DNA of 10,267 nt from positions 1-10,267 of IMG/VR virus record IMGVR_UViG_2660238499_000007. One strand, 5' to 3'. Numbering within the stretch: the first letter of the stretch is position 1; each line of letters starts with the position of its first letter. This document shows, piece after piece, positions 1 to 7,334 of the stretch. The notes under the pieces were generated by a model that saw only the letters and a list, made by a program, of their open reading frames with translations, searched no databases and was not told the origin of the DNA. Both the position numbers and the translations under genes were made by a program. The DNA is from a virus (taxonomy: Duplodnaviria; Heunggongvirae; Uroviricota; Caudoviricetes).

Positions 1-204
1 TCACAAACTCACAAACCAGCAATGAGCCATCACAGGGGGGGGTAGCGACGAGTCGATGACCAGCAGCGCATCTTTCATAATGCCGAAGCGATAGATTGTC
101 TCTGACGCTTTCATGTAGTAGGTAGCATACGGTTTGTGGATGAATCTCTCATCAAGCGACAGGCGGTTCTCAACGTAATCAGCAGCCGGGCTCGGTAATC
201 CCAT
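1..204 (-). CDS. UmuD'-like (LexA/peptidase S24 family) N-terminal fragment; probably frameshifted or a pseudogene at the window edge
   Basis: 67-aa ORF MGLPSPAADYVENRLSLDERFIHKPYATYYMKAS...LLVIDSS aligns with E. coli UmuD from about residue 25 (GFPSPAADYVEQRIDLNQLL..ATYFVKAS..DLLIVDSA), i.e. it starts where UmuD is cleaved to UmuD'. GGAGG lies 6-8 nt upstream of ATG(204) and a LexA box sits just beyond. The frame terminates right after a G8 run (35-42); one alternative frame stays open to position 1. Confidence 0.55.
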   Translation of the reverse strand: MGLPSPAADYVENRLSLDERFIHKPYATYYMKASETIYRFGIMKDALLVIDSSLPPPVMAHCWFVSL

Positions 205-221
205 AACTCACCTCCGATAGT

Positions 222-241
222 TACTGTATATGAACACAGCA
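222..241. promoter_or_regulatory. LexA (SOS) box-like palindrome upstream of the umuD'-like ORF
   Basis: TACTGTATATGAACACAGCA has CTG-N10-CAG with an AT-rich centre, close to the consensus TACTGTATATATATACAGTA; it sits in the promoter position of the minus-strand ORF. Confidence 0.55.
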
Positions 242-404
242 TTGTCGATCGGTGGTGTCGATCAATAGAGATTTGAGTGATAAACTCAGATAATTACGGA
301 AACCTCTGATTGCTCAGCGTTTAGTTACACGTGCTATCTGTTATGCAAGTAGGGGTATTATCTTTTATTAATGCACACTAACTTTGTGCATATACGGAAA
401 TTAT

Positions 405-1553
405 ATGAATAAGATTGATGGTGGCAAGGTTCTTTCGGTCGAGGGTGTGAGGGGGTTGGCCTGCTTGATGGTAGTGCTTTCTCATCTATCAATAATTTTT
501 TTCCCTTACCTGCATACTGGAGACACAAAGATAATTAAGTCTTCTTTTGATGCGGTGACAAGAGATTTACCAATAGGCTTCACTTACTCTGGAACTTCAG
601 CTGTATATATATTCTTTGTATTAAGCGGATATATACTTACAAGTGTTATTTTCAGGTCTGGTTGTATATCTAAGAAGTCCGCAAAGATGCTGCTAGAAAG
701 GTATGTAAGATTATTAATACCAGTTTCGGCATCGATTATTATTTGCGCAATTGTTGTAAATTACTTCCCTTTCAATAAGTATTGGGTTCCGTGGATTTGG
801 TCATTGGGTAAAGATGGTGATTTATCTGTGATAGGAGTTTTAAAAAACTCACTATATGGCTCCATACTCAAAGGTGACTCTTCAATAAATATGGTTACAT
901 GGACTATGCAGGTTGAGTTTTATGGTTCTCTCCTTGTCTTTTTGATATCTCCTATTTCTATCTTTATTAAAAAAGCACCGCTAATATTATCTTTAATCGC
1001 AGTTTTAATCATAATTAACTTTAATGATAAAAATGCATATGGGTACGCATCATTCCTTTTTGGTATGGCTATATGTTTATGCGGATCATATAAGAATAAG
1101 GTTATTGGATATGCAATTCTTATTGCATCACTTTACTTGGCTGGATTTAAATATAATCATTATCTTTACGCATGGTTAAAAGAATTTTCATTATCTATTA
1201 ACAGCATTGAGAAAATAAATTTATACTTGCTTTTCAATCTATTATCTGGAATTGGAGTGGTATATTCCCTATGTAAGATTGGGGTTATGTCATGGTTTTC
1301 TGAATCAAAAATCATGGTCTTTTTAGGAAAGTTATCATTCTCGGCATACTTAATTCAAATGCCTGTATTTTATTGCTTATCAGGGCCAGTTTATCATGAA
1401 TCAAGGAAAATCATGAGCGACTCCAGCGCATGTTTATCAGCTGTTTTAATATCAGTGGTGATGCTTTATGCATGTTCTTACATCTTTTATTTGCTCATCG
1501 ACAGAAAAAGCATCGAGGTTTCCCATAGATTTGCCGCGATCTTTTCAAAGTAA
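405..1553 (+). CDS. Integral-membrane acyltransferase family 3 protein, O-antigen acetyltransferase (Oac/OafA)-like, probable serotype-conversion gene
   Basis: 382 aa from ATG 405 (the track uses an upstream in-frame TTG at 384). N-terminal motif VLSVEGVRGLACLMVVLSHLS matches the family-3 R-x10-H signature; the protein is very hydrophobic with many predicted TM segments; the gene is strongly AT-rich relative to its neighbours and sits next to a tailspike gene as in seroconverting P22/Sf6-type phages. Confidence 0.8.
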   Translation: MNKIDGGKVLSVEGVRGLACLMVVLSHLSIIFFPYLHTGDTKIIKSSFDAVTRDLPIGFTYSGTSAVYIFFVLSGYILTSVIFRSGCISKKSAKMLLERYVRLLIPVSASIIICAIVVNYFPFNKYWVPWIWSLGKDGDLSVIGVLKNSLYGSILKGDSSINMVTWTMQVEFYGSLLVFLISPISIFIKKAPLILSLIAVLIIINFNDKNAYGYASFLFGMAICLCGSYKNKVIGYAILIASLYLAGFKYNHYLYAWLKEFSLSINSIEKINLYLLFNLLSGIGVVYSLCKIGVMSWFSESKIMVFLGKLSFSAYLIQMPVFYCLSGPVYHESRKIMSDSSACLSAVLISVVMLYACSYIFYLLIDRKSIEVSHRFAAIFSK

Positions 1554-1560
1554 AATTAGA

Positions 1561-1582
1561 AGCCATGCGTTAGCGCATGGCT
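1561..1582. terminator. Bidirectional intrinsic terminator between convergent acyltransferase and tailspike genes
   Basis: 9-bp perfect stem AGCCATGCG/CGCATGGCT with a 4-nt loop, flanked by T-rich sequence on the tailspike strand (TCTAATTTTA) and CTTGACCTTT on the plus strand. Confidence 0.6.
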
Positions 1583-1588
1583 TGACCT

Positions 1589-3835
1589 TTAGTAAGAGAT
1601 AGGTATTTCTCCTGTAGAGAAGTTGCCTGCTGCACCTTCCCTGCTGCATAAAGCGAACTTCTTATCAACCACATCCCTTGAGTCTGTAGCAATAATTTCA
1701 TGGCAAATATTATTTGCAGATCTGTGCACGAATGTATTTACAACAGGCTTACTGGACGATGTTCCTTTGGCCCTCGTTCCGTCTATAAGGCAATCAGACA
1801 CCGACATAAGTCCTGAAACTAGGTTATTGCTTGAATCCCAATCTATCAACGACTTATCAAAATACACGCTTCCTAACATATAGGTTGTCCCTCCGGAGTA
1901 ACCAACAAACCTGCGCAGCACTCCACCTTCCAGCCTAATATAGCTGCGAGACATTCCAGACGTAAAGTTCATGAAAGTTATGTCCATATTGCTCTCAAGA
2001 CCATAAAGGCATGATGCATACTCATTCAGGTATCCAATATAAGCTAAAACCTTACAACCAATTGATTTCGCAGGTGTCAGTTTGACTATTGATATTTCTC
2101 TGGAAGTTGAATCATGGTAAGAGATGGCCCACTCAAATCTTGCATTTTTACCATTAAAGGTGCTTCCGGAGAAATCTATAACGCCAGGCATAATGAAATC
2201 ACGAATAATGCTATTTTGTGTCTTAAAATTATTTTTAAATGAAACAATGTTAAGTGTGACTGCGTCAGGCCAGTAGATATTTGTAGATATAATTACATTT
2301 TTTGGCAGATTTAATGCTCTTGGCTGAACAGGGCTACCAGTGGAAACAACATTATCACACCTGCATGTGAAGAGATCTACAAGCCCAGTTTTGTCCGATG
2401 ATATTCTTACCGAACCCCCTTTGACAATAAAATCCCCCTTATGCTCTCCATAGTCAGTGCGAATCCCAAAGGGACCAATATCTGAGTTTATAATCTGCGT
2501 TGATTCATCAAAAGCGCCAGTACCAAAAGCCGCGCCATTAATTATCCTGCAATTGTCTATCAAAACCTTAGACGATCCATAATGAAGATTGAAGCTATCA
2601 ACAGTGCAATCTCTTACCACAGTGTCACGGCTATAATTACCATCAATAGAACGCCACCCTTTCCCAACAACAGTGCTAAAAAAAGAATGCTTCAGAGTAA
2701 ACTCTAGAGTCAATGTGTAGCGAGATTCAGAATCAGGTTGTGTCATCCCCGATGAGCACAAATACCAATTAACACCGTATGTATTACTACTACCAAAAAT
2801 TGCAGAGTTGATGGGTATTACGCCTAAGGTATTATCATAATTAACCCTTACATCAACCATAGACCTTTTGATATCAACAGCCGTGCCAGTAAACGTCCCT
2901 GATAACTTAGGCAATACAGTGACAGTCCTTCGCACAGGCAGCTTATATAAAGTACAGATAAGTGAAGAGTTGTATGTATTCTTAAATGTATACGCTAAAT
3001 CACTTCCTTTGGTTAGTAGGTTAACTTCACCTTTGTATTTTGGCGTGAAAGTGCTGCCAAGCAATCGGTACAAGTCAATTTCAGTACCAGACATCTTAAC
3101 TAAGGAATTATCCCATCCAGTGGTTGACTCTGTAAATGTTAGCGCGGAAGTTAGCTCGTTTAATGGATATGCTGATGGTGTAAAATCTTTAATGTATGTA
3201 GATGCGTCTCTCTCATCAGCATAAACAATCTTACCGCCAGCCAGGTTGAACGTGCAATTGCTGAGATCAAAATCTCCGTATAACGTTGTCTCTTTGTCGA
3301 TAGTGAAAGTCAGTGGCATAGTTGAGTAGATTTTCACTGGAGTTCCTTTAAACTCAGCAAAAACAGAATTCAACTGATCGCTATTTCTTTCACCATCAGC
3401 AGCAGCTATATCGTATACAGAAAGCCTGACCTCTAACCCCCCTATTATTTTGTAACCGTCTGGCGAACTAATTTCATCCATGAACCTTTGCTCAAACTGG
3501 TCAGGGTCATACTTCAGCACATTCGGAAAATAGAACTGCTGAGAACCGTACGCATCGTATACAGCCATAGAATGGCCTTGCACAGTTACGAATTTGGCAA
3601 TCTGTCCGTTATATACAGGATACCCGCCAGCGTTAATGATGATTGGCTGTGCAACAGGAACGTGAGAACCGTCTTCGTTTTCCACATAAACCTGAATCTG
3701 GTTTTCAGGATTTACCGGGTCAGTGCCAATTTTACCGATATAAATTTTGCCATTGGCTACGGCTTTAAAAGAACGAGCCATAGTGAAGAGTTGCGAAGGC
3801 ATGCTTACCACAACATTTGCGGTGATATCTGACAT
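1589..3835 (-). CDS. P22-type tailspike protein (gp9 family) with conserved head-binding N-terminal domain and divergent receptor-binding/enzymatic body
   Basis: 748 aa from ATG at 3835 (CTGGAGCAATGAAATG, GGAG RBS); the track ORF starts 16 codons upstream. The first ~120 aa ([56 protein letters not shown]...[17 protein letters not shown]...[10 protein letters not shown]) match the P22 gp9 head-binding domain as recalled; the rest is Ser/Thr/Gly/Asn-rich as in beta-helix tailspikes but not recognisably P22, Sf6 or HK620. Confidence 0.9.
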
Positions 3836-3956
3836 TTCATTGCTCCAGACGAATGATATGATGCAACCATGATGTGATTGCATACCGAAATGGTACTATT
3901 GAGTATTTATCCAGTAGGTTACGATGCCATTCCACCCAACTGGTGAGGCATCAAGG
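3836..3956. promoter_or_regulatory. Divergent intergenic control region between tailspike and mnt; possible Mnt operator
   Basis: 121-bp spacer between divergent starts. It contains TCCACCCAACTGGTGAGG (about 3931-3948), an imperfect inverted repeat (CACC...GGTG) reminiscent of the P22 Omnt core (GGTCCACGGTGGACC). Promoter hexamers not assigned with confidence. Confidence 0.3.
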
Positions 3957-4217
3957 ATGTACAGCAAATACGACGAGGCGCAGTTTCACTTGAGACTTCC
4001 GCATGAACTTCACGCGAAAATTAAACAGCGTGCGAAGATGAATAACAGGTCGCTGAACTCAGAGATAATTGCAGCGATTGAAGAATCATTGACTAAACAA
4101 AGCTCTGCATCAGTTTACATTGACGATGCAGAGCGTATGGCAGAACAACAATCCGATATGGTAAAGAAAATTGTCTTTGATACGCTCAAAGAGCTATATA
4201 AAAAAGACAGCAGCTAA
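3957..4217 (+). CDS. mnt: Mnt-like ribbon-helix-helix repressor (Arc/Mnt family)
   Basis: 86 aa from ATG 3957 (AGGA RBS; the track ORF begins at an upstream ATG 3924). FHLRLPHELHAKIKQRAKMNNRSLNSEII..IEESL and the C-terminal ERMAEQQSDMVKKIVFDTLKELYKK closely resemble P22 Mnt (FNFRMPMEVREKLKFRAEANGRSMNSELLQIV...ERLADEQSELVKKMVFDTLKDLYKK) as recalled. Confidence 0.8.
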   Translation: MYSKYDEAQFHLRLPHELHAKIKQRAKMNNRSLNSEIIAAIEESLTKQSSASVYIDDAERMAEQQSDMVKKIVFDTLKELYKKDSS

Positions 4218-4224
4218 CTATCAG

Positions 4225-4728
4225 TTACGGAGGATTCCCGATAGGGGGTAAGGGGGTATTTGTATTTATTGTCTTTTGTATATTGTCTTTTGTGTTTGAC
4301 TGATTCGGTAAATTGCTTTTTACCGATTTGGTGAAGGTTTGTTTTACCGAATTGGTAAATGTTTTACCGAATCCGTTAACTTTCGTTTTCCACTCGGAAA
4401 TGTTTGTATTCATACCAACTTGACGCCCCACCTGAATGAGAACTCCCATTCTGATAAGCTCGTTTTTGGCGGTAGAGCATTTGGTTGGTGCCATGCCAGT
4501 GAGTTCAGCGAACTGTTCGTTTCCGATCCAATCTATTTTTTTGTTGTAACCGTATGTCTTGCGCCACACAGCCATAACAATCAGTAACTGATGTAGAGTA
4601 AGTCCAGAAAGCATGGCGGCTTCTAACAGTGTGTTTGCAGTCCGAGTGTAGCCATCTTCGAGTTCTGCCACGCGATGCTCCACGACCTCCAGTTGAGGCC
4701 TGTAATCAGCTAACTTAACGACGCCCAT
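4225..4728 (-). CDS. Lambda-O-like replication initiator, N-terminal iteron-binding domain only (truncated, C-terminal domain absent)
   Basis: 167 aa; residues 20-110 (AELEDGYTRTANTLLEA...LIVMAVWRKTYGYNKKIDWIGNEQFAELTGMAPTKCSTAKNELIRMGVLIQ...GMNTNISEW) parallel lambda O N-terminus (ADLDDGYARLSNMLLEA...LAILRKTYGWNKPMDRITDSQLSEITKLPVKRCNEAKLELVRMNIIKQ...GPNKNISEW). AGGAG RBS before ATG 4728. The ORF runs through the iteron and AT-rich region and stops at 4225, 7 bp from the mnt stop; lambda O is about 299 aa. Confidence 0.75.
   Translation of the reverse strand: MGVVKLADYRPQLEVVEHRVAELEDGYTRTANTLLEAAMLSGLTLHQLLIVMAVWRKTYGYNKKIDWIGNEQFAELTGMAPTKCSTAKNELIRMGVLIQVGRQVGMNTNISEWKTKVNGFGKTFTNSVKQTFTKSVKSNLPNQSNTKDNIQKTINTNTPLPPIGNPP
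4300..4381. repeat. ori-type iterons (four ~18-bp repeats) followed by AT-rich tract, embedded in the O-like gene
   Basis: Four copies of TTTACCGAAT-NN-GGTAAA-like repeats at about 22-bp spacing (ATTCGGTAAATTG; TTTACCGATTTGGTGAA; TTTACCGAATTGGTAAA, a perfect palindrome; TTTACCGAATCCGTTAA), mirrored in the protein as KTFTNSVKQTFTKSVK. An AT-rich AAAGACAATA-repeat stretch lies immediately 3' on the coding strand (about 4255-4300), matching lambda ori organisation. Confidence 0.7.
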
Positions 4729-5342: not shown

Positions 5343-5543
5343 TTATGCAGTTGTTTTTTTGTTACTTGGGAAGGGCTTTATTTCTTCCGCATAAACGCTT
5401 CCATCAGCGTTTATAGTTAAAAAAATCTTTCGGCCTGCATGAATGGCCTTGTTAATCGCGCTTTGATATACGCCGAGATCTTTAGCCGTCTTGGTTTGCC
5501 CAAAGCGTATTGCATAATCTTTCAGGGTTATGCGTTGTTCCAT
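5343..5543 (-). CDS. cro: Cro repressor, lambda-type
   Basis: 66 aa [66 protein letters not shown], essentially lambda Cro with about two conservative substitutions versus my recall; AGGAGG RBS before the ATG. Confidence 0.95.
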
Positions 5544-6357: not shown

Positions 6358-6388
6358 TTGTTTTATTTTTCACGTAATAGGATGATTT

Positions 6389-6730
6389 ATGACACAATTT
6401 CAACTTGCATTAATCGCTAGAGAAGTTGATGGAGAAGTCATCCATCTTCGCACCAAAGACGGATACATCAATGCCACCGCGATGTGCAAGTCTGCGGGGA
6501 AGCTACTTGCTGACTATACACGACTAAAAACAACACAAGATTTTTTTGATGAATTATCACGCGATATGGGGATTCCCATATCGGAGTTAATTCAATCATT
6601 TAAAGGCGGAAGAGCAGAGAATCAAGGGACTTGGGTTCATCCAGACATCGCAATTAATTTAGCTCAGTGGCTATCTCCAAAATTTGCAGTGCAAGTATCG
6701 AGATGGGTGCGTGAGTGGATGTCAGGTTAA
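6389..6730 (+). CDS. KilA-N domain protein (113 aa) in the cI-downstream accessory locus
   Basis: YINATAMCKSAGKLLADYTRLKTTQDFFDELS...GTWVHPDIAINLAQWLSPKFAVQVSRWV matches the KilA-N/APSES-type DNA-binding signature (NATxxCKxxGK ... GTWVHPxxAxxLAxWxSPxF) as I recall it. It occupies the locus lambda uses for rexAB. An in-frame TAA at 6728-6730 separates it from the next ORF. Confidence 0.55.
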   Translation: MTQFQLALIAREVDGEVIHLRTKDGYINATAMCKSAGKLLADYTRLKTTQDFFDELSRDMGIPISELIQSFKGGRAENQGTWVHPDIAINLAQWLSPKFAVQVSRWVREWMSG

Positions 6731-6769
6731 AGAGCGCCTGCCGAACTCCCTATCCACCTTAAGCGGTAT

Positions 6770-7148
6770 ATGACAAACCGAGGCAGAGTTCCTCATACGC
6801 ACTTTTCTATGCTTAATGAACTGACGTTTAACTTGGTTGCGCCACTTGAACAGGCCGGATATACGCTGCCAGAAAAAATGGTCCCTGATATTTCAGAGGG
6901 TAGGGTTTTCTCGCAATGGCTCCGTGACAACCGGGGGGTTGAGCCGAAGACATTCCCAACATATAACCATGAGTACCCAGATGGCCGGACATTCCCGGTA
7001 CGTCTATACCCAAACGAATATTGCAGATTTCAAACAATACTTCAACGAAGTGTGGCTGCCTCAGTACGCTCCTAAATATTTTGCTGAACGAGACCAAAGG
7101 GCATTGACGTTGATTGAGAAAATCATGCTACCTGACCTTGATTCCTAA
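6770..7148 (+). pseudogene. Hypothetical gene downstream of KilA-N, apparently disrupted by a frameshift near 7000-7025 (possible original C-terminal part of the KilA-N protein)
   Basis: The frame opening at 6770 (MTNRGRVPHTHFSMLNELTFNLVAPLEQAGY...YPDGRTFPVRLYPNEY) is the same frame as the KilA-N ORF, separated by one stop. It ends at 7075, but a second frame continues with protein-like sequence (..IADFKQYFNEVWLPQYAPKYFAERDQRALTLIEKIMLPDLDS) to a stop at 7146-7148 that is followed directly by an intrinsic terminator. Confidence 0.4.
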
Positions 7149-7156
7149 ATGTTATT

Positions 7157-7182
7157 CCCGGCCACAGAGCCGGGTTTTCTTT
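7157..7182 (+). terminator. Intrinsic terminator closing the cI-operon accessory region
   Basis: CCCGGC-CACAGA-GCCGGG stem-loop followed by TTTTCTTT. Confidence 0.7.
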
Positions 7183-7334
7183 GCCTCACGATCCCCCTCA
7201 CCCAAGAACACATAACCAATTGTATCTATTTGAAAATAAATAGATACAACTCACTAAACATAGCAGTTCAGATCTCTCACCTACCAAACAATGCACCACT
7301 GCAAAAAATAAATTCATATAAAAAACATACAGAT

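Follow-up and report, generated by a model that had tools for sequence, protein, structure and literature searches.

The window, that is, the whole 10,267-nucleotide stretch of phage DNA analysed here, carries at positions 6389-7148, directly after the cI repressor gene, what is with a probability of about 0.9 a single inactivated 253-codon gene of the BstA family, the presumed abortive-infection function of its ancestor being lost in this copy. A premature stop codon (E114*) and a 2-bp deletion at codon 211-212 mean that the full-length protein cannot be made and, broken by these two lesions, the copy is a pseudogene of the family that is predicted to yield at most a 113-aa KilA-N fragment. 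It is a dead copy of a known family in a known hotspot, and as such an ordinary pseudogene of an already known kind. An earlier examination of the letters alone (the sequence-only reading) had left two options, a two-gene, lysogen-expressed module with an uncharacterised partner or a larger single KilA-N protein that a nonsense mutation and a frameshift were putting out of action; the orthologous loci of phage PhiR5_2 and of E. coli ML35, which hold one uninterrupted ORF, speak for the second.

Structure of the broken gene and its intact orthologs

The gene follows the cI gene of a lambda-type immunity region on the + strand of the window; the annotations of PhiR5_2 and of E. coli genomes name this repressor cI or LexA family. 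The coordinates of the features are collected in Table 1. The first ORF (6389-6730) encodes 113 aa, which is all that translation from the native start can still yield. Its assignment to the KilA-N domain, made earlier without a profile search, was upheld by Pfam PF04383, which it matches with 95.8 bits against a cut-off of 23.8 bits (E=1.7e-27). Coding in the same frame after the single TAA had also been noticed, and this frame is indeed open again from 6731 to 7075, although translation of codons 115-211 from the native start is lost. The frameshift that had been placed near 7000-7025 was narrowed by the ortholog alignment to a 2-bp deletion between 7020 and 7021, after which the natural stop is reachable only in the frame of the ORF at 6837-7148; the frame-2 translation ends in LPQYAPKYFAERDQRALTLIEKIMLPDLDS followed by the stop, the same as the end of the intact protein. 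The terminator expected after the natural stop was recovered by the terminator scan as a hairpin at 7157-7174 followed by TTTTCTTT; with it the cI operon ends and so, on the right, does the cassette. The same scan gave no terminator-like site in the gap between cI and the gene.

Table 1. Features of the window in and around the gene that follows cI.
Feature	Position	Strand	Basis or remark
Acyltransferase, Acyl_transf_3	405-1553
Tailspike	1589-3835
cro	5343-5543	-
cI repressor gene, lambda immunity type, 237 aa	5644-6357	+	Pfam HTH_3 and Peptidase_S24; upstream operon gene, left edge of the swappable cassette
cI-to-gene gap, 31 nt	6360-6388	+	Sequence; AGGA, Shine-Dalgarno-like, at 6380-6383
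Codons 1-113, KilA-N (APSES-like) DNA-binding domain	6389-6727	+
Premature stop TAA; GAA in intact alleles (E114*, gene position 340 G>T)	6728-6730	+	Alignment with PhiR5_2/ML35
Codons 115-211 in the original frame, linker and first part of the BstA_C domain	6731-7020	+	Identical to intact allele
2-bp deletion (TC or CT of ...GAATATCTTGCAG...), shifts the frame	7020-7021	+	Alignment with intact alleles
Last 42 codons in the shifted frame, natural stop TAA at 7146-7148	7021-7148	+	Frame-2 translation
Terminator-like intrinsic hairpin CCCGGC-CACAGA-GCCGGG and T-run	7157-7184	+	Terminator scan
pL-like promoter TTGACA, 17 nt, GATACT	7369-7397	+	Promoter scan, 10/12 matches; context, outside the gene

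In phage PhiR5_2 (PV340546.1) the same cI is followed, after 31 nt, by a single ORF of 762 bp (253 codons), and E. coli ML35 has an identical intact allele at the corresponding site, immediately behind a lambda-type cI. When the window was aligned base by base with this ORF only four differences were found. The first, A for G at 6397 (gene 9G>A), is synonymous; the second, T for G at 6728 (gene 340G>T), changes GAA to TAA and creates E114*; the third is the loss of two bases (TC) after 7020, corresponding to gene positions 633-634; and the fourth, T for C at 7038 (gene 652C>T), would replace His218 by Tyr in the original protein. The pieces into which the coding sequence has been divided match consecutive parts of one profile, phrog_6287, namely its positions 6-121 (window 6389-6727, E=4.3e-28), 164-253 (6770-7072, E=6.6e-30) and 248-301 (6981-7145, E=2.3e-9), and for this reason they are not chance ORFs.

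Purifying selection on the intact alleles is strong, in the N-terminal as in the C-terminal half. Alleles that are 2.5-4% apart in DNA are only one or two amino acids apart, with a dN/dS of 0.009 between the A and C haplotypes and of 0.03 between A and B, and the value is again 0.03 against an allele that is 77% identical in DNA; the ratio is equally low in the N-terminal and the C-terminal halves of the intact gene. Since selection acts on both halves (dN/dS 0.01-0.03), the functional unit is the full 253-codon ORF. Both domains lie in one uninterrupted polypeptide in PhiR5_2, ML35 and DY612, whereas in the window they do not.

Membership of the BstA family and proposed working of the intact ancestor

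The intact protein matches over its full length PHROG 6287, 'BstA abortive infection system, replication inhibitor' (E=1.8e-82), a profile that is also matched by the BstA of the Salmonella prophage BTP1 (E=2.1e-150) and by the 301-aa BstA of E. coli (E=7.8e-133). The BstA model of PADLOC covers residues 120-237, the C-terminal domain only (E=2.5e-20), and BLASTP aligned residues 133-251 with BstA-BTP1 at 29% identity (E=5e-15), whereas the alignment obtained with hhalign between a profile of 40 homologs and BstA-BTP1 (97.8% probability, 186 columns) extends into the KilA-N domain. The local Pfam scan returned KilA-N alone and no BstA_C match, although BstA_C (PF26567) does stand in precomputed annotations, and the NCBIfam scan gave no match for the intact protein or for any of the fragments. 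A BstA_C domain homologous to that of BstA-BTP1 is present in the window, split over two frames.

The two proteins are alike in that each is encoded by a single gene directly after the prophage repressor and with its own terminator, and in that each joins an N-terminal KilA-N-type domain to a C-terminal BstA_C domain and matches PHROG 6287. They differ in length, BstA-BTP1 having 307 aa and the intact form of the window gene 253 aa; in the N-terminal domain, which is a canonical Pfam KilA-N here and has no Pfam match in BstA-BTP1; and in that the window copy is inactivated. The position directly after a repressor with a terminator of its own, which the window shares with PhiR5_2, ML35, H6 and DY612, is common but not universal in the family. 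Distant members of the 253-aa subfamily from Limnobaculum, Shewanella and Paraburkholderia (L052, L053, L055) have no adjoining repressor; one of them lies after a primase-type gene, one among housekeeping genes and one near an Abi_C gene. Stand-alone KilA-N/APSES proteins are also known, such as phage transcriptional regulators, Mbp1 and Bqt4; by contrast, the isolated domain of the window is the truncation product of a two-domain defence protein.

The division of the coding sequence might be taken for a working two-gene module, with a KilA-N protein from 6389-6730 and a partner translated separately from 6770-7148. PGAP and other callers do annotate the 113-aa ORF with a small ORF downstream, in E. 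coli H6 the same stop alone interrupts the gene and leaves its C-terminal ORF unbroken (L018 2501-3262), and BstA homologs with the N domain alone or the C domain alone exist in nature (Owen et al. 2021, PMC8585504). However, the supposed partner is the BstA_C domain of the same protein and is itself cut in the middle of that domain by the 2-bp deletion, no apparent Shine-Dalgarno sequence precedes the ATG at 6770, and all diverged alleles that look functional are fused, single ORFs. Homologs form 2748 clusters in the protein collection, mainly from Proteobacteria, and the best 120 of these are nearly all of about 250 aa, with PF04383 (KilA-N) and PF26567 in their precomputed annotations. It had been anticipated that conservation of the same stop and frame arrangement in orthologous loci would argue against a pseudogene. 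The arrangement proved to be widespread, but it belongs to one identical allele and is not a conserved design, while the diverged intact alleles are single ORFs with the low dN/dS given above. A two-gene module is, on these grounds, very improbable, and the uncharacterised partner that it would have required has been dropped in favour of one broken BstA-family gene.

In BTP1 and in prophages of Klebsiella and E. coli the bstA gene lies just 3' of the repressor gene and is expressed in the lysogen; BstA co-localises with the DNA of the infecting phage, blocks its replication and aborts the infection (Owen et al. 2021, PMC8585504). The prophage itself escapes BstA by means of aba, a DNA element of 63 bp that comprises 29 bp upstream of bstA and the first 34 bp of the gene and that has this effect when active in high copy (PMC8585504). 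The layout in the window, with its 31-nt gap, AGGA ribosome-binding site and a terminator only after the gene, agrees with that of BstA (Owen et al. 2021). With so short a gap, no terminator between the genes and one after them, the lysogen probably transcribed the intact ancestor together with cI. By analogy with the characterised proteins, the ancestral product would have been drawn to the DNA of an infecting phage during its replication and would have blocked that replication, aborting the infection, and its own prophage may have been spared by a cognate DNA element of the aba type at the 5' end of the locus. Abortive infection by replication block has been demonstrated for the BTP1, Kp and Ec proteins only (PMC8585504); these tested proteins are of about 300 aa, and clear sequence similarity between them and the 253-aa form is confined to the C-terminal half. 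The function of the 253-aa subfamily, which carries a canonical KilA-N and is widespread in Proteobacteria, is accordingly assigned by comparison with the family and would be that of BstA. The literature search returned no paper on phage PhiR5_2 and no mechanistic BstA paper later than 2021. The sequence-only reading had called the cassette a candidate exclusion module, which holds for the intact gene, a member of the BstA abortive-infection family, and fails for the copy in the window, which would make a KilA-N fragment of at most 113 aa; here the defence function is most likely lost, within a prophage that is itself heavily deleted.

The gap between cI and the gene is the positional counterpart of the upstream half of the BTP1 aba, the location of which follows Owen et al. 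(2021). When repeats like those of the BTP1 aba were looked for, no direct repeat of 6 nt or more was detected in the surroundings of the start codon, whereas the same script recovers the CCCGCC repeats of BTP1. A 7-nt inverted repeat, TCAACTT/AAGTTGA, is present at 6400-6406 and 6423-6429.

Spread of the broken allele and other lesions of the gene

Two complete E. coli genomes, EC2641 and 1008S19, contain the allele with both lesions, as do 10 of 10 examined contigs that encode the 113-aa product and 8 of the 9 IMG/VR contigs that have the TAA. It resides in several prophage backbones, of which L007, L012 and L013 have early regions that look intact. The exact 113-aa product occurs in at least 1000 contigs, the intact protein of the PhiR5_2 type (A) in 924 and a second intact type in 670; of the 22 complete E. 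coli genomes that have a close allele, 17 hold an intact and 5 a disrupted gene. The lesions do not stem from a read error in the window, since more than 25 loci, each assembled separately, show the identical allele. Noisy assemblies do exist at this locus, as in strain 81, where extra indels and frameshifted neighbouring genes are seen, and one could suppose either that the lesions are sequencing or assembly errors or that programmed readthrough and frameshifting restore the full-length protein. Both lesions are nevertheless repeated base for base in those independent assemblies and IMG/VR contigs, the intact alleles need no recoding, and two separate recoding events would be required, with no slippery motif evident at 7015-7025; an explanation of this kind has almost nothing left to recommend it.

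The inactivated BstA-family gene has also been broken in other ways. The G>T change at codon 114 is present on a second haplotype that lacks the 2-bp deletion, in H6 and in L022, where the neighbouring base is 339C and not T, and a Klebsiella variant (P0139) ends at 113 aa as well. Other independent truncations leave 69, 81, 93 or 175/176 aa and other independent frameshifts lie near 144 and 239 aa; such further loss-of-function alleles (P0138, P0140, P0142, P0141, P0143, P0137 and P0149) come from E. coli, Klebsiella and Raoultella. The recurrence of E114* may result from recurrent mutation or from very tight recombination. A single-base change can create a nonsense codon in the gene in 109 ways and at least 8 independent lesions were seen, so that some site should be hit twice about 20% of the time; chance recurrence is plausible, and the recurrent E114* is not taken as selection for a product made of KilA-N alone. 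The idea that truncation is favoured precisely at the domain boundary was considered and set aside as unproven.

The abundance of the broken allele raises the question of whether the remnant is retained for a function of its own, either because its 5' DNA keeps an aba-like immunity element or because the 113-aa peptide interferes with full-length BstA. If so, a phage carrying the remnant would grow on lysogens with an intact allele and would be a natural 'cheater' of prophage defence. Several observations are in keeping with this: contigs with the 113-aa product outnumber those with the intact A allele, they represent several backbones, E114* is found on two haplotypes, and the first 339 bp of the broken allele together with the 100 bp before them differ from the intact allele in a single synonymous base. 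In BTP1, moreover, aba works as DNA, and a bstA locus with a nonsense mutation still confers immunity (PMC8585504). Against it stand the failure to find BTP1-like aba repeats around the start codon, the frequency of frameshifts and of truncations within KilA-N (69, 81 and 93 aa), which point to plain loss of function, and the expected rate of a repeat hit; furthermore, none of the observations demands such a role, and hitch-hiking with the common lambda-immunity cI module suffices for the spread. Retention for function is thus improbable, though less so than the two alternatives considered before. The synonymous G>A at 6397 sits inside the counterpart of the BTP1 aba region (-29 to +34).

For a dead gene of the BstA family the consequence lies in annotation: the 'KilA-N domain-containing protein' of 113 aa that is called in many E. 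coli genomes, like the small ORFs that follow it, is a fragment of a single dead gene, and neither a functional defence system nor a new module should be recorded on the strength of these pieces. Tight conservation when intact and repeated loss fit a costly, dispensable accessory function of the prophage.

The slot behind cI and the decayed prophage around it

The sequence-only reading had placed the cassette downstream of cI in the slot equivalent to that of rexAB, and this placement is confirmed. In other lambdoid phages and prophages the matches to the window end at about 6359, just past cI, and restart at 7157 with the terminator, so that the borders of the cassette are sharp; from 7157 to 7250 many lambdoid phages are about 86-95% identical to the window, and in HK542, HK244, mEp332 and HK544 the matching region is annotated as 'immunity region' and 'terminator'. 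The region from cI to N is a known mosaic hotspot (Degnan et al. 2007). One and the same cI protein (WP_021568302.1) is followed, depending on the strain, by the 253-aa gene, by a 301-aa BstA or by rexA, and the slot behind lambda-type cI therefore alternates between at least three abortive-infection cassettes, namely rexAB, the 301-aa BstA and the 253-aa KilA-N/BstA_C gene. The 301-aa protein of E. coli E272 (L005 6475-7380), which is of the BstA-Ec type and 42% identical to BstA-BTP1, occupies exactly the same slot behind this very cI; its identity to the window family is 22% and is limited to the C-terminal domain, which makes it a different cassette for this slot rather than an allele.

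RexAB consists of two proteins and depolarises the membrane, whereas the gene described here encodes a single protein with a DNA-binding domain. The lambda rexA and rexB genes share with it the slot between cI and the terminator before pL, and both RexA/RexB and the BstA-type gene are lysogen-expressed abortive-infection functions, some prophages with this cI carrying rexA; no relationship to RexA or RexB appeared among the Pfam, PHROG and PADLOC profile matches, and position alone is common to them.

The prophage around the pseudogene is itself decayed. Of the replication gene O only the part for the N-terminal 167 aa is left (4225-4728, - strand), and this remnant directly abuts the mnt/arc gene (3924-4217, + strand), from which it follows that the whole late, lysis and nin region has been deleted. 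A further segment of about 1.8 kb with N, cIII and kil is absent at 7554/7555, as judged against L007 (9168-10987). The RecT gene (7741-8076) is truncated to 111 aa and the tyrosine integrase gene, on the - strand, has fallen apart into a pair of overlapping ORFs (9433-9906 and 9870-10121), both of which are further signs of a defective element. A boxB-like hairpin, GCGCTGACAAAGCGC, lies at 7466-7480, after the pL-like promoter, in this stretch from which the N gene is absent; it presumably resembles the nutL boxB of P22.

The left part of the window, 1-4236, is 99.4% identical to a P22-like prophage arm with the order acyltransferase-tailspike-mnt, and in related E. coli contigs this arm stands beside an integrase and close to the dsdC-dsdX-dsdA region. 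For the acyltransferase, a protein record was found for the version with an ATG start and not for that with a TTG start. We would guess that the arm has a role in O-antigen modification. At the other end, positions 10123-10267 match with 97.9% identity the junction between a tailspike remnant and an IS3-family element in E. coli EC2641 (L002 2417-2561), which hints at a further rearrangement at the right edge of the window.
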